Part shown: positions 2,678 through 57,861 of the stretch, piece by piece
Numbering within the stretch: the stretch's first letter is position 1
How the letters are laid out: each line of letters starts with the position of its first letter
IMG/VR virus record: IMGVR_UViG_3300045988_087398
Reading direction: 5' to 3' (one strand)
DNA from: a virus
Length of the DNA: 62,946 nucleotides
The notes under the pieces: model-generated
Told to the model about the DNA's origin: nothing
The model's input: only the letters and a program-made list of their open reading frames with translations
The model's database searches: none
Program-made: the position numbers and the translations under genes

Positions 2678-2705
2678 GTCGCGAATAAAACATGCCTTTT
2701 TATGG
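2678..2705 (+). promoter_or_regulatory. TTCGCG-N14-TATTATGA element, copy A (gtCGCG-N14-TTTTATGG)
   Basis: gtcgcg aataaaacatgcct ttttatgg. Same 14-nt spacing and ACA position as the other copies. The leader is identical to that of copy 7. Confidence 0.6.
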
Positions 2706-5657: not shown

Positions 5658-5685
5658 CCCGCGGAAATATCATGCCCTTTTATGA
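5658..5685 (+). promoter_or_regulatory. TTCGCG-N14-TATTATGA element, copy B (ccCGCG-N14-TTTTATGA)
   Basis: cccgcg gaaatatcatgccc ttttatga. Preceded by the partial duplicate gtgcgaataaaacat (compare copy A). The following leader resembles 57854..57880. Confidence 0.5.
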
Positions 5686-5796
5686 GAGGAAAGTGTGATA
5701 TTCTGTATTTCACAACATTTCCTCTTACCTTTGACTTTGGAACGTACTCCGGTGTCCTTCGGGCCCGGGGTCATTTATATTTAAGGAGGGGTTAAA

Positions 5797-6087
5797 GTGA
5801 AAGAGAATAAGTTTCAGGCAGGATTAAAAAAGAAACTTAAAACGATGTTTCCCGGATGTATAGTAACCAAACTCGATTCGAGTGATATTCAAGGCATTCC
5901 AGATTTACTTGTCTTATATAAAGATAAGTGGGCTGCCTTAGAAGTCAAGAAAGAGGCGAAAGCTTCTCATAGACCGAATCAAGATTACTATGTTGAGAAA
6001 ATGAATGAGATGTCATTTTCCAGATTTATATTTCCAGAAAATGAGGAGGACGTATTAAATGAACTTCGTGAAACATTCAAATCTTGA
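5797..6087 (+). CDS. VRR-NUC domain nuclease
   Basis: GTG start after AAGGAGGGG. The GIPDLLVL...ALEVKKE segment is a PD-(D/E)xK core typical of VRR-NUC. Confidence 0.65.
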   Translation: MKENKFQAGLKKKLKTMFPGCIVTKLDSSDIQGIPDLLVLYKDKWAALEVKKEAKASHRPNQDYYVEKMNEMSFSRFIFPENEEDVLNELRETFKS

Positions 6088-6613
6088 GGGGCTTCATGCA
6101 CCATTCAGTGCTAGTCAGTCGGCATGGCTTAGATATGACACTGAAAAAGCACTAACCGTATATGATAATATGCGGGCAAAAGAAAGAGGGACAAAGCTTC
6201 ATGATTGGGCAAAGAGAACTATCGACTTAGGAATCAAACAGCCCAGATCAAATAAAACCTTGTATGCATATGTCAATGATGCTATTGGTTTTAAAATGAG
6301 TACCGAAGTGGTGTTATATTACTCACCATATTTCTTTGGTACAGCTGATGCTATATCATTTAGAAATAATAAATTAAGAATACATGATCTTAAGACTGGA
6401 AAATCTGGTCACATGGAGCAGCTTGAAGTATACGCTGCTCTTTTTTGTTTGGAATACAAAATCAAACCAGGAGATATACAGATGGAGTTACGCTTATATA
6501 AGGACAATGAAGTAATTGTTCATGAGCCAACTGCTGAAGATATTTTACCAATCATGGACAAGATCACGTCTCTTAACAAAGCATTAGAAAACTTTGACGA
6601 CAGGGAGGTGTAG
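6059..6613 (+). CDS. PD-(D/E)XK family nuclease (RecB/Cas4-like fold)
   Basis: GTADAISF...LRIHDLKTGK...QLEVYA reads as a D...D/ExK...Q..Y motif series. Confidence 0.55.
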   Translation: MNFVKHSNLEGLHAPFSASQSAWLRYDTEKALTVYDNMRAKERGTKLHDWAKRTIDLGIKQPRSNKTLYAYVNDAIGFKMSTEVVLYYSPYFFGTADAISFRNNKLRIHDLKTGKSGHMEQLEVYAALFCLEYKIKPGDIQMELRLYKDNEVIVHEPTAEDILPIMDKITSLNKALENFDDREV

Positions 6614-9597: not shown

Positions 9598-9849
9598 ATG
9601 AATTATCAATCTTTATTGACAACAACAGATAATCCATTCGATCCATTCGAGCAGTTCACGCAATGGCAATTGTTTGATGCTCAAAAAGGAAGAGATACGT
9701 GTGGTTATTTGATGCGAATTGCCAAAATTTCAGATGATATGTCTGAAGTTGAGTGCGATAAAGAAATAAATCGAGCAATTGATGAAATTATTGCAGAAAA
9801 TCCTTTAGGAATTTACACAAAAGTTACAAAAGAGCTTGTTTTGGGCTAG
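9598..9849 (+). CDS. Hypothetical protein
   Basis: 83-aa ORF with a start 6 nt after the upstream stop. Confidence 0.55.
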   Translation: MNYQSLLTTTDNPFDPFEQFTQWQLFDAQKGRDTCGYLMRIAKISDDMSEVECDKEINRAIDEIIAENPLGIYTKVTKELVLG

Positions 9850-10127
9850 ATATGTGGTGGAAAAAGCATAGAGGGGGGTCTGAAAAAATGCACCCCCTCC
9901 CTGCATCGCCGCCCTCTTTGAAAATTCCCCGGGGGGATTTTTTATATTTGAGTTTCATGATACTTATAAGGGCTTATGATATGGTCTAGTGCACATCTCA
10001 ATGGACCTGCCACCTATTGAGAGTTTGTTAGTTTCTCCTTTCTGTTTTGTGCATCCCTCCGCCATATTATAAGTCTTTATAAGTGTTATGAAACAGTATG
10101 GAAACTATAAGAAAGGAGATCAGAAAC
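9850..10127. other. Candidate cos/packaging-recognition region
   Basis: 278-nt non-coding gap. GC-rich hairpin GAGGGGG(9871)/CCCCCTC(9893), CCCCGGGGGG palindrome, and three TTATAAG repeats. It lies just upstream of the small terminase-like, HNH and TerL genes. Confidence 0.45.
9921..9945 (+). terminator. Rho-independent terminator
   Basis: aaaattcccc-gg-ggggatttt hairpin followed by a T-run. Confidence 0.6.
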
Positions 10128-21286: not shown

Positions 21287-21670
21287 ATGCAGGTGATCAC
21301 ATTTAAGCAGAAGGGCGATTTCTCCAAACTGAATAGTTTCTTTGAAAAAATTAAAGAAACTGTCAAAATAGGAGACCTCGATAAGTATGGACGAGCTGGT
21401 GTCGAAGCACTTGCATCTGCCACACCAAAGGAATCTGGAAAAACTGCGGATTCTTGGTACTACACAATTGAACATGAAAATGGAAAATCGTCGATTAATT
21501 TTCTTAATTCGAACATTAATGACGGCGTTCCGATTGCAATCATATTACAGTACGGGCATGGTACTGGAACTGGAGGCTGGGTCGAAGGAAGAGATTATAT
21601 CAATCCTGCGGTTCAGCCTCTTTTTGATAAGATTGCCGATGATGCTTGGAAGGAGGTTACTAGATTATGA
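21287..21670 (+). CDS. HK97 gp10-like protein (head-tail/tail completion)
   Basis: GRAGVEALASATPKESGKTADSWYY...GTGGWVEGRDYINPA pattern. Confidence 0.6.
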   Translation: MQVITFKQKGDFSKLNSFFEKIKETVKIGDLDKYGRAGVEALASATPKESGKTADSWYYTIEHENGKSSINFLNSNINDGVPIAIILQYGHGTGTGGWVEGRDYINPAVQPLFDKIADDAWKEVTRL

Positions 21671-36734: not shown

Positions 36735-37985
36735 TTATTGTATTTTTTCTAAGTCTTCTCTAAGCCACTCTACATCTCTTTCGGTGTAAGTGGATTCGGT
36801 TATATCTTGGATATTATGTCCAACCATCTCCTTTAAAGCATATTCGTCTACGTTTGCTTTCTTACATCGAGTGATAAATGTTTTTCTTGGATCGTGAGGT
36901 CTATGCTCAGGATTCAATTTCAATTGCTGTATCACCTTCGTAAAGCGGTTCTTATATTTGTCGTATGTAACAGCATAAGAACCGGCATGTGTTTGTCCTT
37001 TATCATTGAATAGATAAGGGCTTCCTAATTCTATTGCTTTGTCATAATTCATTTTCACAAGCCCTTTTATTTTTGCGTGGATGGGGACGATACGTTGTTT
37101 GCCAGCATTCGTCTTCATTCCGGCTTTCATATACCATTCATCCATATTCACCTCATCAAGACGTAAGGTAGCGAGTTCCTGTGGTCGCCACCCCATATAC
37201 ATCTGAATAATCACCCAATCAGCATATTTTACAACTCCTATATTTTTCCACAATTTATCAATTTCATCTTCGCTGAAAATAATATGTGGTTTCTTAGAGT
37301 TTTCGATATTCTCAACTATGTCGTCAGATAAGTTGAACGTCCGGGCATAATTCTTATCTACAATCTCATATTCTTCAGCGTAATCAAGCAATAGATTGAA
37401 CGTAGATTTAATTCTCGATTTAATCCCTGGGGATGGGTAAATCTTTTTGTCTTTTTCCTTACCTTTTGTTCCTATTCGATATCCTTCCTCGATGCATCCT
37501 TTTATGTGCCGGGCTCTAACGTCTTTTGCTCTCATGTCATATATGGACGAGCAATATGACCACGCTGCTGTAACAGATCGAGTAGCGGACGGCGATATGC
37601 CAGAAAAATATTCTTTGCTCCATTTCATATACAACTCTTTCACTGTTAAATCATTATTCAAGTCATAAGGATTTCGTCTGTACTCCATCAATGCTTCGTA
37701 TGCCTCGTTGTATGTTGGGAAATAGCAAGTTGGCTTTAACTGTTTCAAAATAGGTTTGCCATCTGGTGTCTTTCCAACTGTAACTCTGGCTCTAAAACGA
37801 TTTCTCAATGGTTTGTTTTTAATCTCAGTAATACTTCCAAAGCCATTAGGCAATCGTCGTCGCTTAGTTGTCCTTGGACGAACCTGCGATTGTTTTGAGA
37901 GCGGATAACCACAATGCGGACAAGTTAGTGCTTTATCGCTGACCTGTAATTCACATTCTGGACATTTTGTGAGCATAAGCATCAC
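36735..37985 (-). CDS. int: Tyrosine integrase with N-terminal zinc ribbon and AP2-like arm-binding domain
   Basis: CPECELQVS...CPHCGYPL; LPNGFGSITE...RFRARVTVG...FPTYNEAYEAL; catalytic WRPQEL...HDPRKTF...VGHNI...STYTERD. Confidence 0.9.
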   Translation of the reverse strand: MMLMLTKCPECELQVSDKALTCPHCGYPLSKQSQVRPRTTKRRRLPNGFGSITEIKNKPLRNRFRARVTVGKTPDGKPILKQLKPTCYFPTYNEAYEALMEYRRNPYDLNNDLTVKELYMKWSKEYFSGISPSATRSVTAAWSYCSSIYDMRAKDVRARHIKGCIEEGYRIGTKGKEKDKKIYPSPGIKSRIKSTFNLLLDYAEEYEIVDKNYARTFNLSDDIVENIENSKKPHIIFSEDEIDKLWKNIGVVKYADWVIIQMYMGWRPQELATLRLDEVNMDEWYMKAGMKTNAGKQRIVPIHAKIKGLVKMNYDKAIELGSPYLFNDKGQTHAGSYAVTYDKYKNRFTKVIQQLKLNPEHRPHDPRKTFITRCKKANVDEYALKEMVGHNIQDITESTYTERDVEWLREDLEKIQ

Positions 37986-38120
37986 TCCTTTCTATTTTTG
38001 TGCGAACTATATTACTACGTTTTTTTTTATTTTGTCAACCGTTTGGGCAAACTACATCATGGGAATTCGATCAATTATCGTCTTACTTATTATGTAACAA
38101 ATTTTTTGGGAAGGAGCGTG

Positions 38121-38447
38121 ATGAAAATGCCAAAAGGAAAATGTGAAGGCGGTTGTAAGAATTTGAAGCACTATGATTGGAGGTTGAGAAAAGTATACGA
38201 CAAGGGTCGAGTCGCAGTACCAATTAAGGTTGAAAGACTCAAATGTAAAGATTGTGGACACATGACATTGAGATATCCGGATGATGTTTTATCGTACAAA
38301 CAATATGATAAGGACATTTACGAAGGGGTCGTCGAAGGATTTATTACGCCGGATACGTACGGATTTGAAGAATACCCATCCGAGAGAACAATGCAACGTT
38401 GGCTTAAAGAGCATAAAGATGACGATATGGATAATTCTTCCAAATAA
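38121..38447 (+). CDS. Zinc-ribbon protein (DUF6431-like pattern)
   Basis: AAGGAG RBS. CEGGCKNL...RLKCKDCGH... Confidence 0.4.
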   Translation: MKMPKGKCEGGCKNLKHYDWRLRKVYDKGRVAVPIKVERLKCKDCGHMTLRYPDDVLSYKQYDKDIYEGVVEGFITPDTYGFEEYPSERTMQRWLKEHKDDDMDNSSK

Positions 38448-38522
38448 AATCAAAAACAATATACAATATTTATATTCGTATGCTATAATATATCTATAAT
38501 TTTATGGGGAGGTGAAAAAACA

Positions 38523-38830: not shown

Positions 38831-39082
38831 ATGCAAGATATAGTATTTGGTCCCGGTTCAGTTCCGGTAGCAGTAGCTGCTAGAGTATACGGTAAGGATG
38901 CAAACTGGATTAGAGCGGGTATTGTGACTGGATATCTGGACATAGGGACCGCTACTAGGAGGGGTAAAGTAATAACGTCCATAGAACAAATGAATAGTAA
39001 GTACGGACGGATCAATTATTATATATCTCCTAAGAAATTGTATGCTGAAACTGGTTATATTTGGAAAGGAGTAACGCGATGA
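38831..39082 (+). CDS. Putative excisionase-like/DNA-binding protein
   Basis: AAGGAGGTG RBS. The call rests on small size and its position in the integration module; sequence support is weak. Confidence 0.3.
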   Translation: MQDIVFGPGSVPVAVAARVYGKDANWIRAGIVTGYLDIGTATRRGKVITSIEQMNSKYGRINYYISPKKLYAETGYIWKGVTR

Positions 39083-39492
39083 AATCTGAATTATCAAAGA
39101 GAAATCCATATTGGATTGAAAAACACCGGTATTACGAATTACGTCATTTTTGTTTGCAATATCCTATTTGGAAAAGTTCATACAATTCTTTGTATGGTTT
39201 ATCAAAACATATACATATAAGCGATGTTACTAATTCGTCAAAAACAAAAAATATTCCAGATCCAACGGCAACGATTGCAGGAAAAAGGATGTTTTATTCA
39301 GACCGGATGAAGATGATTACGGAAACGGCAAAGAACACAGATGAGTCATTGGCAAAATATCTTGTGTGTGGTGTGACGGAAGGATTATCATACGATACGC
39401 TTCGAGCTCGCCACAATATTCCATGTTGTAGAGATACATATTATGACATGTATCGAAAGTTTTTTTGGCTGCTTAGCAATGTACGAGATTAA
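39079..39492 (+). CDS. Putative sigma-70 region-4-like / RinA-ArpU-type phage transcription activator
   Basis: ATGA coupling to the upstream gene. The C-terminal YLVCGVTEGLSYDTLRARHNIPCCRDTYYDMYRKFFWLL looks like a region-4 HTH. It lies directly upstream of the first element of the cassette array. Confidence 0.4.
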   Translation: MKSELSKRNPYWIEKHRYYELRHFCLQYPIWKSSYNSLYGLSKHIHISDVTNSSKTKNIPDPTATIAGKRMFYSDRMKMITETAKNTDESLAKYLVCGVTEGLSYDTLRARHNIPCCRDTYYDMYRKFFWLLSNVRD

Positions 39493-39514
39493 AATTCTAA
39501 TCTAGATTAGAATT
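39493..39514. promoter_or_regulatory. 22-bp perfect palindrome AATTCTAATCTAGATTAGAATT (operator candidate) abutting element copy 1
   Basis: Read directly from the sequence. A shorter copy, TAATCTAGATTA, lies at 40868..40879. Confidence 0.6.
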
Positions 39515-39540
39515 CGCGTAGAAAACAGATTGTTTTATGG
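39513..39540 (+). promoter_or_regulatory. TTCGCG-N14-TATTATGA element, copy 1
   Basis: ttcgcg tagaaaacagattg ttttatgg. Its first 18 nt are shared with copy 7. Confidence 0.6.
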
Positions 39541-39575
39541 AACTATAATTTATATTTTTAAGGAGGAACAATATT

Positions 39576-39911
39576 ATGGAGATGAAGAGTTTAGGAACTT
39601 GTTATTTGTACGAGGTTACAAAAACAGGAATGACGAAATGCTTCGGAGAGGTTTTTCATCAGGATGCGATTACCAAAGAAGATGGACGCACCATACCTGG
39701 GACGACCGCATTTCGACCTCAGCAGGGAGGATCGGTTATTGTGGCGTCCGAGGAAGGATGCATTCTTGATGGTACGATCTGGTATTATGACGATGAACCG
39801 GAAGAAGCGCTTAAGAAGCTGTATAAAGCAGAACGTGCAAAATTAGCAAGACTCAACAATGATGTCTATCGACAGGAAATGATTGTGCTTAATCTTAAAG
39901 CAAAATTATAG
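39576..39911 (+). CDS. Hypothetical protein (cassette ORF, 111 aa)
   Basis: AAGGAGGAAC RBS. Flanked by element copy 1 and the terminator at 39919. Confidence 0.6.
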   Translation: MEMKSLGTCYLYEVTKTGMTKCFGEVFHQDAITKEDGRTIPGTTAFRPQQGGSVIVASEEGCILDGTIWYYDDEPEEALKKLYKAERAKLARLNNDVYRQEMIVLNLKAKL

Positions 39912-39918
39912 AAGGATC

Positions 39919-39948
39919 GAGCCCCTAACAAGGGCTCTTTCTTTTTTT
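39919..39948 (+). terminator. Terminator of the shared GAGyCC-TAACA-GGrCTC family
   Basis: gagccc-ctaacaa-gggctc hairpin followed by TTTCTTTTTTT. The T-tract runs into element copy 2. Confidence 0.7.
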
Positions 39949-39975
39949 ACGCGAAAATTACATTTCCTATTATGA
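39948..39975 (+). promoter_or_regulatory. TTCGCG-N14-TATTATGA element, copy 2
   Basis: tacgcg aaaattacatttcc tattatga. 32 nt are identical to copy 5. Confidence 0.6.
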
Positions 39976-40016
39976 AAACAAAGACAACATATCATAAAAA
40001 GGAAAGGATGATTATT

Positions 40017-40085
40017 ATGTTAAAACTATTTGTAATAGTAGCATTTATTATTGCAGGAATTTGGTTTGTTGAATGTGTTGATTAA
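40017..40085 (+). CDS. Micro-ORF, 22-aa single-TM peptide (MLKLFVIVAFIIAGIWFVECVD)
   Basis: AAAAGGAAAGG RBS. Bracketed by element copy 2 and the terminator at 40090. Confidence 0.45.
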   Translation: MLKLFVIVAFIIAGIWFVECVD

Positions 40086-40089
40086 GGAG

Positions 40090-40117
40090 GAAGTCCTACA
40101 TGGGCTTCTTTCTTTTG
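40090..40117 (+). terminator. Terminator of the shared hairpin family
   Basis: gaagtcc-tacat-gggcttc hairpin followed by TTTCTTTTGTTTT. Confidence 0.6.
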
Positions 40118-40119
40118 TT

Positions 40120-40147
40120 TTCGCATAAATATCATCCTATTCTATGG
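40120..40147 (+). promoter_or_regulatory. TTCGCG-N14-TATTATGA element, copy 3 (degenerate: TTCGCA...TTCTATGG)
   Basis: ttcgca taaatatcatccta ttctatgg. The spacing is the same. Confidence 0.45.
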
Positions 40148-40159
40148 GAGGTGAGAACA

Positions 40160-40327
40160 GTGAAAAACATACTGACGATTATCATGAGTATAGTATTGGT
40201 TCTTATGCTGGTGATTGATATATTTTTCTATCAAAGACCAGAAGGAAGAATGTTTATGCTTATACTCGCAACAATTGGAGGTGTATGCAGCATCATTATG
40301 TTCGAACAAGACGAAGCAGAGTCCTAA
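40160..40327 (+). CDS. Small membrane protein (55 aa, 2 TM) ending ...EAES
   Basis: GTG start after GGGAGG. The stop TAA lies in the loop of the terminator hairpin. Confidence 0.55.
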   Translation: MKNILTIIMSIVLVLMLVIDIFFYQRPEGRMFMLILATIGGVCSIIMFEQDEAES

Positions 40328-40344
40328 CATGGACTCTTCTTTTT
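40318..40344 (+). terminator. Shared-family terminator with the stop codon in the loop
   Basis: agagtcc-TAAcat-ggactct hairpin followed by TCTTTTT. Confidence 0.75.
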
Positions 40345-40370
40345 CGCGAAAATTACAAGGTGTATTATGA
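40343..40370 (+). promoter_or_regulatory. TTCGCG-N14-TATTATGA element, copy 4
   Basis: ttcgcg aaaattacaaggtg tattatga. Confidence 0.6.
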
Positions 40371-40446
40371 GAGAATAGACACTCGAAAGGGCAGTGAAGT
40401 TTGAGGATCCAAGCATCATTGGAAACTAATCGGGAAGGAGATAATA

Positions 40447-40599
40447 GTGAAAACTATGCACGAGGCTAGATCGAAAGATGAACTATATCGAAAGATATAC
40501 CATGAGCCTGAGGGAAATATCGGCGTCCTTCGAGTGGAATTGATGTATTCTTTTCTTTTTCGCGAAAATTACATTTCCTATTATGAAAACAATTCATAA
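40447..40599 (+). CDS. Possible 50-aa ORF (cassette without its own terminator; reads through element copy 5)
   Basis: GTG after GGGAAGGAG. The frame was checked codon by codon. This may be a decayed cassette. Confidence 0.25.
   Translation: MKTMHEARSKDELYRKIYHEPEGNIGVLRVELMYSFLFRENYISYYENNS
40559..40586 (+). promoter_or_regulatory. TTCGCG-N14-TATTATGA element, copy 5
   Basis: ttcgcg aaaattacatttcc tattatga. Confidence 0.6.
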
Positions 40600-40614
40600 A
40601 AAGGAGTGATTTAT

Positions 40615-40842
40615 ATGATGAATTTATATAATTATTTAGCAGTTATGATTACAGAGCGTATGACTGGATTGGATCATACTTGTCTCAAGATTTGGGATTT
40701 TTATACATATGTGTATACATTATCTACAGTTGAGAAAGCTATGAACATTACAATCATAGGTTTGGTATTAATTACTGTATGCGTTATAGCAATTATCGTA
40801 TTAAACAAATTTGAGAAGAAATTGAAGAGTGAGGAAGCCTAA
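40615..40842 (+). CDS. Small membrane protein (75 aa, C-terminal TM) ending ...SEEA
   Basis: AAAAGGAG RBS. The stop TAA lies in the terminator loop. Confidence 0.6.
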   Translation: MMNLYNYLAVMITERMTGLDHTCLKIWDFYTYVYTLSTVEKAMNITIIGLVLITVCVIAIIVLNKFEKKLKSEEA

Positions 40843-40862
40843 CATGGGCTTCTTCTCTTTTT
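40831..40862 (+). terminator. Shared-family terminator with the stop codon in the loop
   Basis: gaggaagcc-TAAcatg-ggcttcttc hairpin followed by TCTTTTT. Confidence 0.75.
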
Positions 40863-40867
40863 ATTTT

Positions 40868-40879
40868 TAATCTAGATTA
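40868..40879. promoter_or_regulatory. Palindrome TAATCTAGATTA (second copy of the 39493 operator core)
   Basis: Read directly. Followed by the AT-rich gaattttatattttacaac. Confidence 0.5.
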
Positions 40880-40987
40880 GAATTTTATATTTTACAACAC
40901 AGACAAACCCATAATAAATGATATTTTGATATTGGAAAAATTCCCGGGTGGGGTTTTCATAAAAACAAAATGGAAGGAGGAAAACAA

Positions 40988-41194
40988 ATGGTTGCATTAG
41001 CGATTACTTTGGTGATTACCAACATTCTTTGGCTTTTATATTTTCAGTGGTGGCGGAAGAAGAAAACATTGGGATCTATCATTATTACGGACGAAGACTC
41101 TTTGTACGTAGAATTGGAAGATCACGAGTCTATGGATAAGATTCATAAGAGTAAAGATGTTATTTTTTCAGTGCATATGGAATCGCGTAAATAA
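40988..41194 (+). CDS. Small membrane protein (68 aa, N-terminal TM)
   Basis: GGAAGGAGG RBS. MVALAITLVITNILWLLYFQWW... Confidence 0.6.
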   Translation: MVALAITLVITNILWLLYFQWWRKKKTLGSIIITDEDSLYVELEDHESMDKIHKSKDVIFSVHMESRK

Positions 41195-41234
41195 CGTGGG
41201 CTATTATGAATAAAATTTAAGGAGGTATAAAGCA

Positions 41235-41591
41235 ATGGACAAAATTAAGGAAGCATTGTGGAATGACTACGAGGAGAAGAAGGGATTATTGAATGACATG
41301 GAACCAGGCTCAGACGAGTATAAGGTTGTTGCATCAGAAGTCGATAATATCCGGAAAGAGCTTATTGATGTCAATAAGACTGTAGCTGAGAACGAATTTA
41401 AGGTTACTCAGGCGGCAGACGATTCGAAGAAAGAGAAGACTCGGAACCGGATTTCTATCGGAACTTTTATTACATCAACCGCATTATCGTTGTATGCCAT
41501 TGGAAAGACATTCAAATTTGATTCGTCATCGACAGTCACATCCACATTGGGTCGGAATATTTTGAATGCGTTTATTCCAAAGAAGAGATAA
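41235..41591 (+). CDS. Hypothetical protein (coiled coil plus C-terminal hydrophobic segment)
   Basis: AAGGAGG RBS, 118 aa. Confidence 0.6.
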   Translation: MDKIKEALWNDYEEKKGLLNDMEPGSDEYKVVASEVDNIRKELIDVNKTVAENEFKVTQAADDSKKEKTRNRISIGTFITSTALSLYAIGKTFKFDSSSTVTSTLGRNILNAFIPKKR

Positions 41592-41604
41592 TTATTCAAA
41601 ACGG

Positions 41605-41635
41605 GACGCTGAGGAAACTTGGCGTCTTAGTTTTT
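41605..41635 (+). terminator. Rho-independent terminator
   Basis: gacgc-tgaggaaacttg-gcgtc hairpin followed by TTAGTTTTT, running into element copy 6. Confidence 0.6.
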
Positions 41636-41661
41636 CGCGAAATAAACATCGACTATTATGA
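41634..41661 (+). promoter_or_regulatory. TTCGCG-N14-TATTATGA element, copy 6
   Basis: ttcgcg aaataaacatcgac tattatga. Confidence 0.6.
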
Positions 41662-41734
41662 AAGGATGATATATAATTATTTATATTATTGTCCTTATCT
41701 TAACGGAAAGGGCTTGCTTTAAGGAGGCAGGTAA

Positions 41735-41890
41735 ATGGAAGATAACATGAAAGAATTTGTTGCATTCAGTAGAAAATTACTGAGAAGTTTGAAAGAACTT
41801 CGTGAACTTCTGGCTAAGGACGATAAGGAATTAGCTTTGAAGAAACTCGATGAGTTGATTGACGATACTCAGAAGGATATTGAAGCATAA
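41735..41890 (+). CDS. Small helical protein (51 aa; below ORF-track cutoff)
   Basis: AAGGAGG RBS. MEDNMKEFVAFSRKLLRSLKELRELLAKDDKELALKKLDELIDDTQKDIEA. A terminator follows. Confidence 0.5.
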   Translation: MEDNMKEFVAFSRKLLRSLKELRELLAKDDKELALKKLDELIDDTQKDIEA

Positions 41891-41908
41891 TATCGAGTTA
41901 TCAGAAAT

Positions 41909-41946
41909 GGCCTGTGGTTGAAAAATCGCAGGCTCTTTCTTTTTTA
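41909..41946 (+). terminator. Rho-independent terminator
   Basis: ggcctg...caggct stem followed by CTTTCTTTTTT. Confidence 0.55.
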
Positions 41947-41957
41947 TATATTTTATT

Positions 41958-42317
41958 ATGAGATATCATTACGAAAAACCAAAATTATACAATTCAATAT
42001 ATGGACAGATATACGAATGTAATCACCCAGTCTATAGCAGGTGCACATTATATTTGATAGGTAATAAGGGCTTAGCTGTGATTCAGCAGCGATATAACCC
42101 GGAGAATAAAACAACTTGGTGGACCGAAATAGACCCGTGGTTGAATAATACTTTATATTTGCATCCGGGATTTAAGAAGTTTTTCGATGAGAGAGCTGGA
42201 GAGCCAGTCGAAGAATTGTATCCGACCGTCTCTGTACGGCAAATTATGTGGGCTTTGAAGATGAAACCAATAAAGCGAGAACGATGGGAAACATGTTTTG
42301 ATCGGCGATATATTTGA
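41958..42317 (+). CDS. Hypothetical protein (119 aa)
   Basis: ORF; the ATG lies within ttttattATGa. No upstream TTCGCG box or obvious RBS was seen. Confidence 0.5.
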   Translation: MRYHYEKPKLYNSIYGQIYECNHPVYSRCTLYLIGNKGLAVIQQRYNPENKTTWWTEIDPWLNNTLYLHPGFKKFFDERAGEPVEELYPTVSVRQIMWALKMKPIKRERWETCFDRRYI

Positions 42318-42318
42318 A

Positions 42319-42346
42319 TTCGCGTAGAAAACACACAGTTTTATGG
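42319..42346 (+). promoter_or_regulatory. TTCGCG-N14-TATTATGA element, copy 7
   Basis: ttcgcg tagaaaacacacag ttttatgg. The leader ttttatggaggtgatatttatg is identical to that of copy A. Confidence 0.6.
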
Positions 42347-42357
42347 AGGTGATATTT

Positions 42358-42693
42358 ATGGCAATAACAGAAATTTTAAGTAAGTATTCTAAGAGATTTG
42401 ATGATTCTTGTATTTCTTGGGCAAGAGATCCAGAATTGAACATTTATTTCCTAAAGTACATACAAGATTATGCCAATGATTTACTACAGCGTAGCGGATA
42501 TCTATTTCTAAATAGAGTATTTGAATTATTAGGAATAGCACCAACTAAAGCTGGACAAATCGTTGGATGGATTTATGCTCCAGGAAAAATGATCGATTTT
42601 GGAATTTCAAAAGAAGACGGAACATCAAACTATATGCTTAATTTTAATGTTGATGGCGAAATATTAGACAAAACTGATATGGAAGATTATTAG
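42358..42693 (+). CDS. Stand-alone paralog of the C-terminal domain of 47484..48416
   Basis: DPELNIYFLKYIQDYANDLLQRSGYLFLNRVFELLGIAPTKAGQIVGWIY...NFNVDGEILD compared with DPELNLMFLRKQQDFLNDRLKAEGYLFLNDVYDALGIQKTKIGQIAGWVY...DFNCDGDILD. Confidence 0.65.
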   Translation: MAITEILSKYSKRFDDSCISWARDPELNIYFLKYIQDYANDLLQRSGYLFLNRVFELLGIAPTKAGQIVGWIYAPGKMIDFGISKEDGTSNYMLNFNVDGEILDKTDMEDY

Positions 42694-42700
42694 GAATGCT

Positions 42701-42736
42701 AAGGCTCAGTGTAGAAATACATTGGGTCTTTTCTTT
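42701..42736 (+). terminator. Rho-independent terminator (28 nt identical to 2903..2930)
   Basis: aaggctcagtg-tagaaata-cattgggtctt hairpin followed by TTCTTTTT. Confidence 0.7.
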
Positions 42737-42764
42737 TTCGCGTAAAAAACATATCCCTTTATGA
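42737..42764 (+). promoter_or_regulatory. TTCGCG-N14-TATTATGA element, copy 8
   Basis: ttcgcg taaaaaacatatcc ctttatga. Confidence 0.55.
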
Positions 42765-42799
42765 AAATAAACTACATTACATAAACGGAGGTATGTGTT

Positions 42800-42982
42800 A
42801 TGAATATTAAGAAAAAAGAAGCAAAGAAGATGATTAAATTGTTGGACGATAAGGCAAGATATGCATTGCAAAATATGATGTTTGCAATTGAGCATAAACT
42901 GCCTATTGAATCGCAGTTTAGAGGAGAGGCTAAAGCTTATTTAGACTTAAGAGACGAATTAATGCGAGGTTTGAAGAAGTAG
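42800..42982 (+). CDS. Small helical protein (60 aa)
   Basis: ACGGAGG RBS. Flanked by element copy 8 and the terminator at 42990. Confidence 0.55.
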   Translation: MNIKKKEAKKMIKLLDDKARYALQNMMFAIEHKLPIESQFRGEAKAYLDLRDELMRGLKK

Positions 42983-42989
42983 TTATTTG

Positions 42990-43025
42990 GGAGTAGATTT
43001 GACAGAGTCTATTCCTTTTCTTTTT
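42990..43025 (+). terminator. Rho-independent terminator
   Basis: ggagtaga-tttgacagag-tctattcc hairpin followed by TTTTCTTTTT. Confidence 0.6.
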
Positions 43026-43051
43026 CGCGAAAATTACATACTGTATTATGA
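43024..43051 (+). promoter_or_regulatory. TTCGCG-N14-TATTATGA element, copy 9
   Basis: ttcgcg aaaattacatactg tattatga. Confidence 0.6.
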
Positions 43052-43080
43052 GGAAATCAAAGAAAGGAAGGTATATTTAT

Positions 43081-43257
43081 ATGATACTTACAACATTATT
43101 AATTATTGCAGCTTTAATAACAATAGTGGTTTTAGCATTTGCGGTATTAGCCGGGGGTGCAGGATTCTTATTGGTGTTTGGAGATGTAATTGTATTTGTA
43201 TTGGTGGTTGTAGGAATTATTAAATCCTTAACCAAGAAAAAGAAATCCAAGAAATAG
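43081..43257 (+). CDS. Small membrane protein (58 aa, 2 TM, Lys-rich tail)
   Basis: AAAGGAAGG RBS. MILTTLLIIAALITIVVLAFAVLAGGAGFLLVFGDVIVFVLVVVGII... Confidence 0.6.
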   Translation: MILTTLLIIAALITIVVLAFAVLAGGAGFLLVFGDVIVFVLVVVGIIKSLTKKKKSKK

Positions 43258-43282
43258 GAGAGCTACGGCTCTCTTATTTTTT
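43258..43282 (+). terminator. Terminator GAGAGC-tacg-GCTCTC
   Basis: Perfect 6-bp stem with a tetraloop, directly after the stop TAG, followed by TTATTTTTT. Confidence 0.7.
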
Positions 43283-43308
43283 CGCGAAAAATACTTTCAC
43301 TATTATGA
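43281..43308 (+). promoter_or_regulatory. TTCGCG-N14-TATTATGA element, copy 10
   Basis: ttcgcg aaaaatactttcac tattatga. Confidence 0.6.
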
Positions 43309-43347
43309 CAATAATAACAGTTTTCATAAATGAAAGGAGAAAACATT

Positions 43348-43557
43348 ATGATTAAAGCATTGAAAGAGTACAAGGACGAGGTATTGAAACCAGAAATAGC
43401 ATGGTTAAAAAGACACTGGATTGGGTTTTTAGTGTATTTGGTAATATGCTTTATTACGGGGTTTGTATCAACGATGGTACGTAATATCAAAGAAAAGAAG
43501 AAACATAATGAAGACGATTATTATGAAGATCGTTATGGCAAAGAGGAGGAGTCCTAA
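43348..43557 (+). CDS. Small membrane protein (69 aa, 1 TM) ending ...KEEES
   Basis: AAAGGAGA RBS. The stop TAA lies in the terminator loop. Confidence 0.6.
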   Translation: MIKALKEYKDEVLKPEIAWLKRHWIGFLVYLVICFITGFVSTMVRNIKEKKKHNEDDYYEDRYGKEEES

Positions 43558-43574
43558 TGGACTCTTCTTTTTAT
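43546..43574 (+). terminator. Shared-family terminator with the stop codon in the loop
   Basis: gaggagtcc-TAAt-ggactcttc hairpin followed by TTTTTATTT. Confidence 0.75.
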
Positions 43575-43602
43575 TTCGCGTCGTTTACATTTCCTATTAT
43601 GA
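43575..43602 (+). promoter_or_regulatory. TTCGCG-N14-TATTATGA element, copy 11
   Basis: ttcgcg tcgtttacatttcc tattatga. Confidence 0.6.
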
Positions 43603-43628
43603 AAACATATAGGAAAGGAGACAAAATA

Positions 43629-43700
43629 ATGAATGCAGTTATAGCAATATTGGCTGGCGCATTAATTTATGCGATCCTGAACAAGGTGGATAAGAAATAG
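43629..43700 (+). CDS. Micro-ORF, 23-aa single-TM peptide (MNAVIAILAGALIYAILNKVDKK)
   Basis: AGGAAAGGAGA RBS. Bracketed by element copy 11 and the terminator at 43701. Confidence 0.45.
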   Translation: MNAVIAILAGALIYAILNKVDKK

Positions 43701-43725
43701 GAGGGCTACGGCTCTCTTATTTTTA
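43701..43725 (+). terminator. Terminator GAGGGC-tacg-GCTCTC (near-copy of 43258)
   Basis: Stem-loop directly after the stop TAG, followed by TTATTTTT. Confidence 0.65.
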
Positions 43726-43744
43726 TAAGAAAGGAGATGATCTA

Positions 43745-44524
43745 TTGATCAATGCAAAATTATTTCTCAAAAGACACTCTTCAACAATTTTAGCATGTCT
43801 TGGATGTGCAGGGGTTATAGTGACTTCTGTAACGGCTGTACGAGCAACCCCAAAGGCTATTAAACTATTAGAAGAAGCCGAAGAAAACAAAGGATCTGAA
43901 TTAACAACATGGGAAAAAGCCAAGACAACGACGAAAGCATATTTACCGTCGATATTGTTTGGTGTTTCAACCATTGCGTGTATTGCCGGTTCTTCGATTC
44001 TTTCATATAACACCCAGAAATCTATGGCAAGTGCATACGCTTTGATAAATCAATCGTATCGAGATTATCGTAGAAAAGCAAAAGATATTTACGGTGAAGA
44101 TGCAGATAGAAAGATTCTCGATGCAATCATTGCTGAAAAAGCGGAGACTATGTACATAGAAGCTCCTGGTATTTGTGATTGCGCGACCTTATATATCGAC
44201 GAGAATCACGGAGAGAAACGATTGTTCTATGACGAATATGGCAAGCGATTCTTTGAATCAACGTTGGAACAAGTTATATCAGCGGAGTACCATACGAACC
44301 GTAATTTTGTATTACGTGGATCACAGATGCTAAATGAATTCTATGGGTTCTTGGGCTTGGAACCTACTGATTTTGGCTGGGAAGCTGGATGGTGTGTCAT
44401 AGATGAGCTTTATTGGATTGATTTTGATCATAGAGAAATTGAAATCGATGGTAAGAAATGTATTGTCATCCAGATGCCGTGGGAACCACGAATAGGGTAT
44501 GACGATGATAATTGCTATTATTGA
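43745..44524 (+). CDS. Two-TM-hairpin protein family, paralog A (259 aa)
   Basis: TTG start after AAAGGAGA. KRHSSTILACLGCAGVIVTSVTAVRATPKAIKLLEEAEE...second TM...ASAYAL..SYRDYRRK aligns with 45091 and 47484. Confidence 0.65.
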   Translation: MINAKLFLKRHSSTILACLGCAGVIVTSVTAVRATPKAIKLLEEAEENKGSELTTWEKAKTTTKAYLPSILFGVSTIACIAGSSILSYNTQKSMASAYALINQSYRDYRRKAKDIYGEDADRKILDAIIAEKAETMYIEAPGICDCATLYIDENHGEKRLFYDEYGKRFFESTLEQVISAEYHTNRNFVLRGSQMLNEFYGFLGLEPTDFGWEAGWCVIDELYWIDFDHREIEIDGKKCIVIQMPWEPRIGYDDDNCYY

Positions 44525-44552
44525 TTCGCGAAAAAACCATTTGCTATTATGA
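44525..44552 (+). promoter_or_regulatory. TTCGCG-N14-TATTATGA element, copy 12
   Basis: ttcgcg aaaaaaccatttgc tattatga. It starts one nt after the stop of 43745..44524. Confidence 0.6.
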
Positions 44553-44577
44553 AAAAATACAAAAGGAGGGTCTTAAT

Positions 44578-44742
44578 ATGAATAAGGCAGATTTGAAGTT
44601 TTTGAGAAAGGCAGGATTTAACATTGCTTTCGGAGTCATCGTAGGTAAAGAATTAGGCGAGTTCGTTACGCAGGTGGCTTATCGATTTGCAATTAAGATG
44701 ATGGACAAGAAAATGCCAGAATCAAACAAGACTGAAGAGTAA
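44578..44742 (+). CDS. Small protein (54 aa, one hydrophobic segment)
   Basis: AAAAGGAGGG RBS. Confidence 0.55.
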   Translation: MNKADLKFLRKAGFNIAFGVIVGKELGEFVTQVAYRFAIKMMDKKMPESNKTEE

Positions 44743-44751
44743 TTTTCAAAT

Positions 44752-44788
44752 AGAGGATTCAATGGAAACATTGGGTCTTCTATTTTTT
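44752..44788 (+). terminator. Rho-independent terminator
   Basis: agaggattcaatg-gaaa-cattgggtcttct hairpin followed by ATTTTTT. Confidence 0.65.
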
Positions 44789-44831
44789 CAGCACGGAAAT
44801 ACCAGTAATCAATGATATTTTGATAGTAACA

Positions 44832-44859
44832 TTCGCACGAAAAACATCGGCTATTATGG
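44832..44859 (+). promoter_or_regulatory. TTCGCG-N14-TATTATGA element, copy 13 (TTCGCA...TATTATGG)
   Basis: ttcgca cgaaaaacatcggc tattatgg. Preceded by AATGATATTTTGATA (44811..44825), which also occurs at 40919..40933. Confidence 0.55.
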
Positions 44860-44877
44860 AAAGGAGGTAAGCCATCT

Positions 44878-45051
44878 ATGAAAGAAAAGTTTAATTCAAC
44901 GACAGTTTTGAGCGCCGTTGTGACTGCGATGGGAGTGATTGGAACATTACTTTCATTTAAGGTTCAGAACGATGATCGGGAACTGTTGAAGGAAGAATTA
45001 AAGGAAGAGCTTAGAGAAGAGCTTAGCAACGAAGATAAAGAGGAGTCCTAA
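44878..45051 (+). CDS. Small membrane protein (57 aa, 1 TM, EEL-repeat tail) ending ...KEES
   Basis: AAAGGAGG RBS. The stop TAA lies in the terminator loop. Below the ORF-track cutoff. Confidence 0.55.
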   Translation: MKEKFNSTTVLSAVVTAMGVIGTLLSFKVQNDDRELLKEELKEELREELSNEDKEES

Positions 45052-45070
45052 CACGGGCTCTTCTTTTATA
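45040..45070 (+). terminator. Shared-family terminator with the stop codon in the loop
   Basis: gagtcc-TAAcac-gggctc hairpin followed by TTCTTTTAT. Confidence 0.65.
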
Positions 45071-45090
45071 TTTGATAGGAGGAATCAAAC

Positions 45091-45885
45091 ATGAGTAAAG
45101 AATCATTTGCGAGATTTGTGAAAAGCACAAAAAGAGGTCTCGTAAAACACAGTCCGGAAATCTTAACCGGATTAGGAATCGCAGGAATGATATCATCTGT
45201 CGTTCTTGCGGCAAAAGCAACGCCCAAGGCGCTTCAGTTGATTGAAGAAGCGAAGGATAAGGCAGACACAGACAAGCTTACAGTACCAGAAACAATCAAG
45301 GCAGCATGGAAGCCATATATTCCAGTCGTACTTACATGCAGTGCATCTGTAGCTTGTATTATTGGTGCAAATACAGTAAATGCACGACGCAATGCTGCTC
45401 TTGCTACGGCATATGAACTCTCAAGAAATGCTCTGACTGAGTATAAGGAGCGTGTGGTAGAGGAGATTGGCAAGGAAAAAGAGCAGAAGATACAGGAAAA
45501 GGTTGCTCAGAAAAAGATCAACGAAACACCAAACGCATCTAATGTAATAATTGCAGGTGCAAACAAGGTGTGGTTTCTTGAGCCTGTATCTGGACGATAT
45601 TTCCAGGCAAATGTAGAAGACGTAAGACGAGTAATCAATGATTTGAATTATCGCCTTACTGGTGGAATGGAAGAGTATGTATCGCTCAGTGAATTCTATG
45701 ATGAAATCGTGGCTATTGGTGGAGATCTTCCTCACACATGCACCAGCGACGATCTTGGATGGAACCTCAATCGAGATGGGCAAATTGAAATCGATATGCC
45801 AGCAGGCAAAATGTCAAATGGCGAACCATGTCTCGTATTGGACTATCATGTAGCACCGCGGTACGATTATTCAAAATTATCGTAA
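45091..45885 (+). CDS. Two-TM-hairpin protein family, paralog B (264 aa)
   Basis: VKHSPEILTGLGIAGMISSVVLAAKATPKALQLIEEAKD...ATAYELSRNALTEYKERV. Confidence 0.65.
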   Translation: MSKESFARFVKSTKRGLVKHSPEILTGLGIAGMISSVVLAAKATPKALQLIEEAKDKADTDKLTVPETIKAAWKPYIPVVLTCSASVACIIGANTVNARRNAALATAYELSRNALTEYKERVVEEIGKEKEQKIQEKVAQKKINETPNASNVIIAGANKVWFLEPVSGRYFQANVEDVRRVINDLNYRLTGGMEEYVSLSEFYDEIVAIGGDLPHTCTSDDLGWNLNRDGQIEIDMPAGKMSNGEPCLVLDYHVAPRYDYSKLS

Positions 45886-45913
45886 TTCGCGAAAAATACA
45901 AGCACTATTATGA
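45886..45913 (+). promoter_or_regulatory. TTCGCG-N14-TATTATGA element, copy 14
   Basis: ttcgcg aaaaatacaagcac tattatga. It starts directly after the stop of 45091..45885. Confidence 0.6.
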
Positions 45914-47164: not shown

Positions 47165-47479
47165 ATGAATGATATTTTGAAATCTGAATATTCAGAACAG
47201 TTTGACAAGGAACGAAAGAGCAGGATTGAAATTTCGTTTCATAAATATGGTCCAGCAAGAGATAACTTCGCAAGTGGCAGAGTGGACGCACTTGCTACTG
47301 CCGAGCTATGTCTGGACGCATTTAAGAAAGATCATAACAGTGAGCATTTGATCGATGCTGCAAATTATTTGATGTTCCGGTTTAAGTATCCTATGCCGGG
47401 AGATCATTTTACACCGACAGACTCGAGCGGAAGTGTCGGAACAGTTGGTACACCAATAAATATGGAAAAGGAGATTTAA
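47165..47479 (+). CDS. Hypothetical protein
   Basis: TAGGAGAG RBS, 104-aa ORF. Confidence 0.55.
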   Translation: MNDILKSEYSEQFDKERKSRIEISFHKYGPARDNFASGRVDALATAELCLDAFKKDHNSEHLIDAANYLMFRFKYPMPGDHFTPTDSSGSVGTVGTPINMEKEI

Positions 47480-56608: not shown

Positions 56609-57845
56609 GCCGTTTTTATATGACTACCAGATGGATGCTGTGAATCACATGTTCAATGGTTGTATTCTCAATGGTGGTGTTGGATCGGGAAAAAGTAGAA
56701 CCGGATTATATTACTATTTCAAGGAACAAGGTGGTAGTATAAATCCAGACTACAAACCGATGAAAAAGCCAAAGGATTTATATATTATCACAACTGCCAT
56801 GAAACGGGATACTTTGGAATGGGAAGGTGAGCTGGCAAATTACCTACTATCCACAGACCCAAAGAAAAACCTCTTAAATGGTAGCGTAAAAATTACCATA
56901 GATTCATGGAATAATATAAAGAAGTATGTAGATGTAAAAAATGCATTCTTCATATTTGATGAACAGAGAGTGGTTGGATCCGGAGCTTGGGTTAAGGCAT
57001 TTCTGAAAATAACAAAGTCAAATAATTGGGTTTTGTTGTCGGCAACTGCCGGAGACACCTGGTCTGATTATATTCCGGTATTCATAGCAAATGGTTTTTA
57101 TAAGAACAGATCTGAGTTCATCCAACAACATGTGATATATTCTCGATTTACAAAATACCCGCAGATTGACAGATATATCAATACTGGTCGATTAATTCGT
57201 TTAAGAAAGAAAATACTGATTGATATGGACTTCAAGCGTCAGACAATCGCTCACCATAATGATATTTATGTAACATATGATGTCACTAAGTATAAATCAG
57301 TTGTGAAAAATAGATGGGATCCATACAAAAATGAACCTATCCAACAGGCATCGGGTCTCTGTTATATTTTAAGAAGAGTCGTTAACGAAGACGAATCCAG
57401 AATAGTAGCTCTATTGGAGATTCTTGAGAAAACTCCTAGAGCTATTATTTTTTACAATTTTGATTATGAGCGAGAGATGCTATTACATGTGTTTAGCAAC
57501 CACGATGGTAATAGTAAGGACTTTGAAGTGGCCGAATGGTCTGGTCATGCTCACCAACCTATACCAAAAACAAAGCGATGGGTATATCTGGTTCAGTATA
57601 CGGCTGGATGTGAAGGTTGGAATAGTATCAAGACAGACACGATTATATTCTATTCACAGAATTACAGTTATAAGGTTGTGACACAGGCTGCTGGACGAAT
57701 CGATCGTCTGAATACGCCATTCAAAGATTTATATTATTATCATCTGAAAAGTAGAAGCGGGATTGATCTCGCCATAAGTAAAGCATTGAAGGAGAAGAAA
57801 AAATTCAATGAAACAAAATGGTGCGGTAATTCATTCGCGAAATAA
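56598..57845 (+). CDS. SF2 (DEAD/DEAH-like) helicase
   Basis: GGVGSGKSRT (motif I), FIFDEQR (II), LLSATAGD (III), QAAGRIDR (VI). Confidence 0.75.
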   Translation: MPTKPFLYDYQMDAVNHMFNGCILNGGVGSGKSRTGLYYYFKEQGGSINPDYKPMKKPKDLYIITTAMKRDTLEWEGELANYLLSTDPKKNLLNGSVKITIDSWNNIKKYVDVKNAFFIFDEQRVVGSGAWVKAFLKITKSNNWVLLSATAGDTWSDYIPVFIANGFYKNRSEFIQQHVIYSRFTKYPQIDRYINTGRLIRLRKKILIDMDFKRQTIAHHNDIYVTYDVTKYKSVVKNRWDPYKNEPIQQASGLCYILRRVVNEDESRIVALLEILEKTPRAIIFYNFDYEREMLLHVFSNHDGNSKDFEVAEWSGHAHQPIPKTKRWVYLVQYTAGCEGWNSIKTDTIIFYSQNYSYKVVTQAAGRIDRLNTPFKDLYYYHLKSRSGIDLAISKALKEKKKFNETKWCGNSFAK

Positions 57846-57861
57846 TCATGTCCTTATATGA
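57834..57861 (+). promoter_or_regulatory. TTCGCG-N14-TATTATGA element, copy 15 (overlaps the helicase stop)
   Basis: ttcgcg aaataatcatgtcc ttatatga. Confidence 0.55.

Follow-up and report, generated by a model that had tools for sequence, protein, structure and literature searches.

A repeated three-box element, very probably a promoter, accompanies a single-chain two-barrel RNA polymerase in phages of two bacterial phyla

For SPbeta YonO, the start of transcription has been mapped, but the study expressly did not define the promoter (Forrest et al. 2017, PMC5467207). HHpred and DxDGD family analysis has further identified a DxDGD protein flanked by helix-turn-helix (HTH) domains as the signature gene of a supercluster that unites the Lactococcus 1706-like phages, Faecalibacterium phage Oengus and several actinophage clusters; promoters were not mentioned there (bioRxiv 10.1101/842583). 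Additionally, genome announcements for Gordonia cluster DJ phages describe an intergenic motif of 43-50 bp with a TATAAT, present in 5 copies before central small genes, many of them encoding membrane proteins; the motif was read as a sigma-70 -10 that 'may regulate gene expression', and neither a phage polymerase nor upstream boxes nor Firmicute phages were connected with it (Vardy, PMC9671010; Conley, PMC10868162). In the literature searched, no activity is reported for this polymerase family and no paper assigns a promoter to it. Here we describe a 28-nt element found 18 times in IMG/VR virus record IMGVR_UViG_3300045988_087398, a stretch of 62,946 nt (the window) that is the genome of a temperate siphophage with nearly all of its genes on the + strand. 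From sequence comparison and predicted structure, on which the whole analysis is built, we consider it highly probable that the elements are promoters, and likely that they are read by the phage's own two-barrel polymerase (6617-9592) rather than by the host enzyme.

The element was first noticed in a sequence-only reading of the window, which gave its pattern as TTCGCG-N14-TWTTATGR (positions 1-28 below) and listed 17 copies. The exact pattern matches 10 times in the window, always on the + strand, against 0.02 expected from dinucleotide-preserving shuffles, and the remaining listed copies were recovered with up to 3 mismatches. The sequence at each of the 17 coordinates is as listed. One further copy had been missed, at 41182-41209 (+), with the sequence ATCGCGTAAATAACGTGGGCTATTATGA, and all 18 lie on the + strand as claimed. 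A 40-column position weight matrix (PWM), trained on the 18 window copies themselves, scored them at 28.6-49 bits, while no other + strand site in the window reached 8 bits and the best - strand site scored 10 bits. Run on the genome, on shuffled sequence and on related phages, as that reading had proposed, the matrix separated the copies; relatives matched and shuffles gave 0.

Eight bases are invariant in the 18 copies: C3, G4, C5, C14, T24, A25, T26 and G27. A and T predominate at positions 7-13, and most copies have C at position 20. Both the 14-nt spacer, which is the same in every copy, and the conserved ACA within it (A13 in 14 of 18, C14 in 18 of 18, A15 in 16 of 18) had been correctly recognized. 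The palindromic core did not hold up in the same way: TTCGCGAA is present in just 10 of the 18 copies and the symmetry is gone in relatives, which carry CGCA or CRCA. We therefore rejected an activator dimer on the palindrome, one of the readers that had been suggested, because the symmetry is lost in relatives.

Fifteen copies fall within 39493-45913, where the element had been said to head nearly every small gene. That description stands for most of the region, but four genes there have no copy (40970-41194, 41958-42317, 43745-44524 and 45091-45885). Distances to the start codon also shifted slightly, to 12-77 nt from position 28 and 112 nt for the copy at 5658, compared with the earlier 15-75 nt, about 77 and about 110 nt. 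The genes 3' of the copies are short (22-118 amino acids, aa), and for 8 of the 18 copies they encode strongly hydrophobic peptides. About 10 copies directly adjoin a terminator hairpin and its T-run; terminator-like sites number 17 in the 36-47 kb region, against 5.7 expected. As the sequence-only reading had noted, structural genes lack the element, and none precedes them (10-36 kb). A lone TATTATGA box was also seen at 41954-41961, after a terminator T-run, with neither the CGCG nor the ACA box and with no Shine-Dalgarno sequence (SD); the ATG of the conserved gene 41958-42317 (phrog_17256) lies inside it.

An element of this kind might not be a promoter at all. Alternative roles would be a binding site for a protein, for instance an operator, or a signal at the RNA level, for instance in the 5' untranslated region. 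In favor of this are the palindromic TTCGCGAA of 10 window copies and a separate 20-bp palindrome that overlaps the first copy of the array, and the strand bias alone is weak evidence for a promoter when all genes lie on one strand. Against it, the element fills the whole space from terminator T-run to SD in about 10 cassettes, which leaves no room for another promoter, and its palindrome is not conserved in relatives. Additionally, a scan of the whole window at Rfam gathering thresholds found no family, and the element has no internal pairing potential. We regard a non-promoter role as very unlikely.

The separate palindrome, ATTCTAATCTAGATTAGAAT, is perfect where it overlaps the first copy. 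A second palindrome of this type, with 2 mismatches in one arm, lies at 40864-40883, upstream of 40970-41194, a gene that has no element. Half-matches to ATTCTAATCTAGATTAGAAT number 4 against 0.17 expected. The palindrome resembles an operator and may serve to keep the array shut in the lysogen. Elsewhere in the intergenic DNA, a 15-mer, AATGATATTTTGATA, is found at 40917-40931, 44811-44825 and 47168-47182 (4 against 1.0 expected, barely above chance).

If the elements are promoters, the simplest reader would be the host polymerase with sigma-A. TATTAT or TATAAT would then be the -10, the upstream boxes would be a degenerate -35 or UP-like element, and the downstream genes would be early genes transcribed by unmodified host enzyme. 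The hexamer is indeed TATAAT-like, and perfect in Gordonia phage Tanis and Arthrobacter phage Egad; the cluster DJ announcements read it as a sigma-70 -10. Early host-takeover modules with many strong host promoters are found in other phages, such as SPO1 and T4. However, no copy has a TTGACA-like hexamer 16-18 nt upstream of TATwAT, and a conserved (TT)CGCR box sits at a fixed 14 nt instead. Sigma-70-like sites are not enriched in the region (41 found, 40.7 expected), and scans of 5-47 kb returned shuffle counts.

Position statistics from 600 distinct copies in gut-phage loci also fit a sigma-A -10 poorly. Position 22, which would be the -11 A, is A in 48% and T in 40%; half of the copies lack the -11 A, and A22 and T26 occur together in 286 of the 600. 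T23, A25, T26 and G27 are conserved in 95-99%, and positions 28-31 are purines in 98, 96, 96 and 87%. The reading is CTTTATGG or TTTTATGA in Oengus and in the conserved copies of the polymerase operon. The SD begins 0-3 nt after position 28 in more than 25 independent copies, from gut phages and 1706 (TATGA-AAGGAG-N8-ATG and TATGG-AGGTGATATTT-ATG are examples), and nowhere does it start before position 27. A start 7 nt past the hexamer would remove the SD in those copies, so that a start downstream of the box is not supported. The evidence from the -35, from the -11 A and from the SD distance bears out the view of the sequence-only reading that this is not a canonical sigma-A promoter, and together with the distribution described below makes a host sigma-A promoter an improbable explanation.

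The same spacing argues for a different start site. A start 5-12 nt downstream of TATTATGA had been predicted, but an SD only 0-3 nt past the box makes a start within the box most likely. At the copy at 40120, the T-run and the SD are 26 nt apart, so the whole promoter must fit there with the start at its 3' edge. Additional evidence comes from the leader hairpin of the polymerase operon. Folding from motif position 1 puts its outermost pair at position 27 for 26 of 48 distinct sequences and at 28 for 5 more, even where upstream bases are free to pair, as would be expected if the stem formed the extreme 5' end of an RNA. Taken together, the abutting SD, the purines at 27-31 and the hairpin edge indicate that transcription most likely starts at G27, possibly at R28.

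The leader hairpin is kept at the same position in relatives, with a purine-rich 5' arm; the arm sequences vary and the pairing is kept. It could act as a 5' stabilizer or as a promoter-proximal attenuator. In two relatives, a promoter and hairpin of the polymerase-operon type are followed by a tRNA-like gene (GGCGGACCATTAGCTCAGTTGGTT...; L147 at about 5278-5340 and L148 at about 8810-8870).

To follow the element outside the window, we used 80 IMG/VR loci, picked solely because they carry a relative of the polymerase (54-100% identity), and 24 loci from bacterial assemblies, which include [Ruminococcus] torques ATCC 27756, Cuneatibacter caecimuris, Enterocloster lavalensis and a Clostridium sp. 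isolate. In the IMG/VR loci the window PWM matched on the polymerase strand only, with one match about 900-1000 nt upstream of the polymerase in almost all of them. All 104 loci together (1.64 Mb) gave 210 matches on the strand that encodes the polymerase; the opposite strand and the shuffles gave 0 each. Of 95 eligible loci, 83 have a copy 850-1300 nt upstream of the point where the polymerase gene begins, and this copy is the positional homologue of the one at 5658. Conversely, 119 IMG/VR loci match the bare 14-base pattern. The full PWM is also satisfied by about 90 of these, which hold up to 13 copies in 14 kb or less, always on one strand, and most of which have genes in common with the window. 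Among the 29 loci that lack full-PWM support, 27 have no homologue in common with the window and 2 have a single one.

More distant phages with the polymerase also carry the element. In Lactococcus 1706, whose polymerase shares 39% identity, ttCRCAtGTTTTACAnnnnCTATAGTAGaaagaagg occurs at least 10 times on the + strand; the form is gACGCGAAAAAtaCAgcctcCTTTATGG in Oengus (at least 11 copies) and tTCGCAGAAATTACACGTCCTATAATGAGACCCC (TCGCAGAAATTACACGTCCTATAATGAG) in Tanis (11 copies); Egad carries 9 copies, including one that precedes its polymerase gene by 930 nt; and Streptomyces SheRa has 6 matches to a PWM trained without it. All relatives share one register, namely CGCR, 7 nt, ACA, 4 nt, C and T-w-T-w-r-T-R-R, and only the letters within the boxes drift by lineage, with TATTATGA, TATAATGA, TATAGTAG and CTTTATGG as variants of the 3' box. 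A leave-one-genome-out PWM misses the 1706 copies and most of the Oengus copies because their 3' boxes differ; those copies were recovered by repeat search and regular expression. Tanis, a DJ phage, carries TCGCAGAAATTACACGTCCTATAATGAGACCCC at the described place, followed in most copies by TAYGAAAGGA. The DJ intergenic motif is most likely the same element.

Element and polymerase thus co-occur across phages of two bacterial phyla, Firmicutes and Actinobacteria. In polymerase-less phages of the same hosts, the PWM found 0 sites in Faecalibacterium Mushu, 1 borderline site on the minus strand in Lactococcus Tuc2009 and 0 in Gordonia GTE2. This absence counts against host sigma-A, as does the presence in both phyla of CGCR and ACA, which are not sigma boxes. 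The six-genome core consists of structural genes, a primase-polymerase, a helicase, a single-strand annealing protein, DUF6353 paralogues, VRR-Nuc and Cas4-like nucleases, a few uncharacterized proteins and the polymerase, which is its only recognizable transcription protein.

The protein encoded at 6617-9592, one of two candidate readers in the sequence-only reading, matches phrog_4291, named 'RNA-dependent RNA polymerase', along its entire length (E=0, 1208 bits). It carries an SGADFDGD catalytic motif (ADFDGD) and HTH/Sigma70_r4-type matches at both ends (aa 105-127 and aa 968-989). In six distant homologues, the SGADFDGD catalytic loop and the N-terminal recognition helix E-S-[ST]-V-R are invariant. 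Within the disordered N terminus (6617-6760), aa 25-40 form a further stretch, H-x-G-x-x-R-x-S-G-R-Y-P-W-G-S-G, that is invariant in the six homologues. A sequence search against the PDB found nothing meaningful. An AlphaFold model built with 40 homologues was of moderate quality (mean pLDDT 71.8, pTM 0.48). The best PDB match of this model in Foldseek was the QDE-1 RNA-dependent RNA polymerase (5fsw_A, E=6.9e-5, probability 1.0), followed by RDR2 and, weakly, by beta' subunits. On the evidence of the predicted fold and the catalytic motif, the open reading frame (ORF) is shown to encode a QDE-1/YonO-like two-barrel RNA polymerase. This candidate therefore proved to be a two-barrel polymerase that co-occurs with the element across two phyla. 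The other candidate, the 137-aa protein at 39079-39492, is confined to Oengus-like gut phages and the element is not, which rules the protein out as general reader; a role in local regulation is possible.

The polymerase family is large. At E<=1e-10 it comprises at least 8,000 clusters (90% identity), and a tblastn search of 50,697 phage records found 250 that match, from at least ten host genera. Members also occur in prophages of cultured gut Clostridia, for example in [Ruminococcus] torques ATCC 27756 and Hungatella hathewayi.

A phage-specified reader, as the sequence-only reading had suggested, is the best explanation of both the co-occurrence and the misfit to sigma-A. That reader could still be a factor that redirects the host core polymerase, either by MotA/AsiA-like appropriation or as a sigma-like protein, with the factor on CGCR/ACA near -30 and TATwAT as the -10. 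T4 middle promoters combine a MotA box at -30 with a sigma-70 -10. They resemble the element in having an upstream box about 12-14 bp from a TAnnnT-like hexamer and no -35, and the 14-nt box-hexamer spacing and the box centre near -30 of the element match them. Several conserved core proteins are uncharacterized, and the HTHs of the 991-aa protein resemble sigma region 4. However, a T4 middle promoter depends on a true sigma-70 -10 with the start some 7 nt further on, neither of which fits the element, and any such factor meets the same problems of SD proximity and -11 A as sigma-A. Pfam and PHROG scans of 26 window ORFs found no MotA, AsiA or sigma family match apart from the polymerase-fused HTHs, and a factor would need to work with host polymerases of two phyla. 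The element does not fit a MotA-type middle promoter despite the similar box position, and we consider a redirected host polymerase unlikely.

We favor recognition by the phage polymerase itself, and the anatomy of the element would then be as follows. CGCR would lie at about -24 to -21, followed by the A/T-rich spacer, (A)CA at -14 to -12, C at -7 and T-x-A-T at -4 to -1, with the start at G27 or R28 and a purine run from +1 to +5. The two sigma-region-4-like HTH domains at the N and C termini would most likely read the upstream boxes, and the polymerase would melt the T/A-rich segment at -4 to -1. The 39.5-46 kb region would be a series of insulated units of one or two genes (promoter, SD, ORF and terminator), many encoding membrane peptides. 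The copy at 5658 would drive the polymerase's own operon of VRR-Nuc, Cas4-like, polymerase and 83-aa genes, to the terminator at 9920. A polymerase gene behind its own promoter implies positive feedback. Taken together, this would be a self-sufficient, sigma-independent system in which a polymerase of about 110 kDa finds a three-box promoter of about 30 bp through its fused HTHs, starts at the G of TATG, is possibly delivered in the virion, fires insulated small-membrane-protein units and amplifies itself, the pair being conserved from phages of Clostridia and Lactococcus to those of Gordonia, Arthrobacter and Streptomyces. We put this complete picture forward tentatively, as slightly more doubtful than an even chance.

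Several points weigh against recognition by the phage polymerase. The evidence for the pairing is computational throughout. Co-occurrence follows the whole phage lineage and not the polymerase alone, so that the effects of the two cannot be told apart; the 104 loci include many near-duplicates, so that their counts overstate independence; and the PWM applied to them was trained on window copies. Specificity could in fact reside in one of the core proteins phrog_4303, 4079, 4678 and 4282, or these could act by redirecting the host polymerase. The copies of the actinophages Tanis and Egad, with a perfect TATAAT as 3' box and an SD at a greater distance, are compatible with a start by host sigma-A. 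A polymerase under its own promoter also needs a bootstrap, either virion delivery or some host transcription. The sole hint of delivery is the annotation label 'structural protein' on the polymerase homologue orf75 of 1706.

The coordinates of the copies and of other window features are collected in Table 1. The integrase gene is divergent from a gene for a DUF6431 protein (37998-38447, +), and the best sigma-70-like site of this switch region is at 38460-38489 (TATACA-18-TATAAT with TG). DUF6353/phrog_2152 is represented by four paralogues (42343-42693, which is the C-terminal part only, 43745-44524, 45091-45885 and 47484-48416), and the family is present in all distant relatives. The 83-aa phrog_4303 protein encoded after the polymerase could be a polymerase cofactor. 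Just 3' of the polymerase operon, 9870-10070 is GC-rich and hairpin-rich. Many related contigs stop about 300 nt past the polymerase gene, and in the actinophages and 1706 the polymerase gene is second to last, with only the small 83-aa homologue after it. This region is probably a cos/packaging end, in which case the window would be a circular permutation or a prophage form.

Table 1. Positions of the element copies and of other features in the window
Feature	Position	Strand	Remarks
copy	2678..2705	+	TTTTATGG subclass; SD GGAGGTGA from position 27-28; 32 bits
copy	5658..5685	+	heads VRR-Nuc / Cas4-like / RNA polymerase operon; position conserved in relatives
copy	39513..39540	+	TTTTATGG subclass
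copy	39948..39975	+	directly after terminator 39919-39937; next gene encodes a 22-aa hydrophobic peptide
copy	40120..40147	+	TTCGCA...TTCTATGG; after terminator 40084-40114; SD from position 27; T-run to SD 26 nt
copy	40343..40370	+	after terminator 40318-40337
copy	40559..40586	+	top score, 49 bits
copy	41182..41209	+	overlaps stop codon of 40970-41194
copy	41634..41661	+	after terminator 41603-41628
copy	42319..42346	+	TTTTATGG subclass; SD from position 27-28; 2 nt past stop codon of 41958-42317
copy	42737..42764	+	after terminator 42701-42730
copy	43024..43051	+	after terminator 42989-43016; next gene encodes a 58-aa membrane protein
copy	43281..43308	+	after terminator hairpin
copy	43575..43602	+	after terminator hairpin; next gene encodes a 23-aa hydrophobic peptide
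copy	44525..44552	+	immediately 3' of stop codon of DUF6353 gene 43745-44524
copy	44832..44859	+	TTCGCA...TATTATGG; SD 4 nt past box
copy	45886..45913	+	immediately 3' of stop codon of DUF6353 gene 45091-45885
copy	57834..57861	+	within 3' end of helicase gene 56577-57845; heads next small-gene block
perfect 20-bp palindrome ATTCTAATCTAGATTAGAAT	39494..39513	.	overlaps positions 1-2 of copy 39513
VRR-Nuc-like endonuclease	5797..6087	+	first gene of polymerase operon; core gene in all relatives
Cas4/PD-(D/E)XK-like exonuclease	6059..6613	+	core gene
single-polypeptide two-barrel RNA polymerase, 991 aa	6617..9592	+	phrog_4291
83-aa protein, phrog_4303	9598..9849	+	right after polymerase gene; kept in 4/5 distant relatives
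terminator-like hairpin ending polymerase operon	9920..9942	+	adjoins GC-rich cos-like region
leader hairpin	5684..5726	+	begins at motif position 27 of copy 5658; T-rich run after
137-aa protein, phrog_11237	39079..39492	+	just upstream of array; only in Oengus-like gut phages
tyrosine integrase with N-terminal zinc ribbon	36735-37985	-	divergent from DUF6431 protein gene
TerL	11984-13747		
2280-aa ORF	21667-28509		weak similarity to tape-measure proteins of relatives
DUF5906 protein	49899-54089		homologous to primase-polymerases annotated in relatives

The actinophage notes had already caught sight of the element. Against the literature searched, what seems novel is its link to a polymerase, its conservation across phyla, its non-sigma geometry and the start predicted for it. 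A defined consensus with a predicted start makes promoter recognition by single-chain two-barrel polymerases testable, a question that is not settled even for YonO, and for a polymerase family that is very common. The system would account for the block of small membrane-protein genes that is a hallmark of these phages, would correct the sigma-70 reading in the actinophage genome notes, and is a candidate orthogonal expression system for Gram-positive and actinobacterial hosts.

Among known systems, SPbeta YonO is similar in being a single-chain DxDGD two-barrel polymerase of a temperate Firmicute siphophage that serves a transcription unit of the phage's own. It transcribes a single long late operon, whereas here there are at least 18 promoters, mostly before small non-structural genes, plus the polymerase operon. 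Membership of the DxDGD two-barrel superfamily is all that the two enzymes have in common. By tblastn the window polymerase shows no similarity to SPbeta, and the named genera of the 250 matching records include no Bacillus phage (two genera are unnamed). A family PWM found no copy in a 32-kb stretch of SPbeta (52-84 kb) that holds yonO and yonK. In the yonN-yonK gap of SPbeta (NC_001884, L209 numbering, minus strand), TCATTTATGAGGGT and TCATTTATGAAGGT occur at 8434-8447 and 8591-8604, 157 nt apart. Sites of the TCATTTATGAGGGT type number 2 against 0.09 expected, and the first lies in the published P_YonO primer-extension amplicon. Both sequences resemble the 3' box cTTTATGRg of the window element; this is an unverified lead, as the published start site (168 genome position 2225998) could not be mapped onto the record.

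Gp66 of phi14:2, a crAss-like phage, and gp96/gp64 of Thermus phage P23-45 are also phage two-barrel enzymes, with promoter motifs of their own upstream of mapped starts. Those motifs are limited to relatives that have the enzyme, and the same logic of co-occurrence was applied here. The phi14:2 and P23-45 systems have mapped start sites, chromatin immunoprecipitation and structures, whereas the present one is known from sequence alone. Their promoters differ in sequence from the element, and the window polymerase has no sequence-level PDB match to those enzymes. The start-site-defined promoters of P23-45 gp96/gp64 and of the AR9 non-virion RNA polymerase differ in both sequence and spacing, and an AR9-type AACA-N6-TA geometry was rejected for mismatched spacing. 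Nor does the element fit a hairpin promoter of the N4 virion-polymerase type, since it has no inverted repeat beyond TTCGCGAA, which is present in 10 of 18 copies and unconserved.

In function the element resembles promoters specific to a phage polymerase, with a cognate polymerase in the same genome and co-occurrence in 6 of 6 distant polymerase-bearing phages. Compared with T7-like systems, the enzyme here is two-barrel and QDE-1-like, unrelated to the Pol I-like right hand, and has fused HTHs; the element is longer (about -27 to +5) with three separated boxes, and the phage is temperate. As predicted for the element, the promoters of T7, T3 and SP6 are compact and run unbroken into the start, where TAT(A) stands just ahead of a purine at +1 and the first transcribed bases are rich in purines. 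Like the element, they occur as many co-oriented copies per genome in lineage-specific sequence variants.

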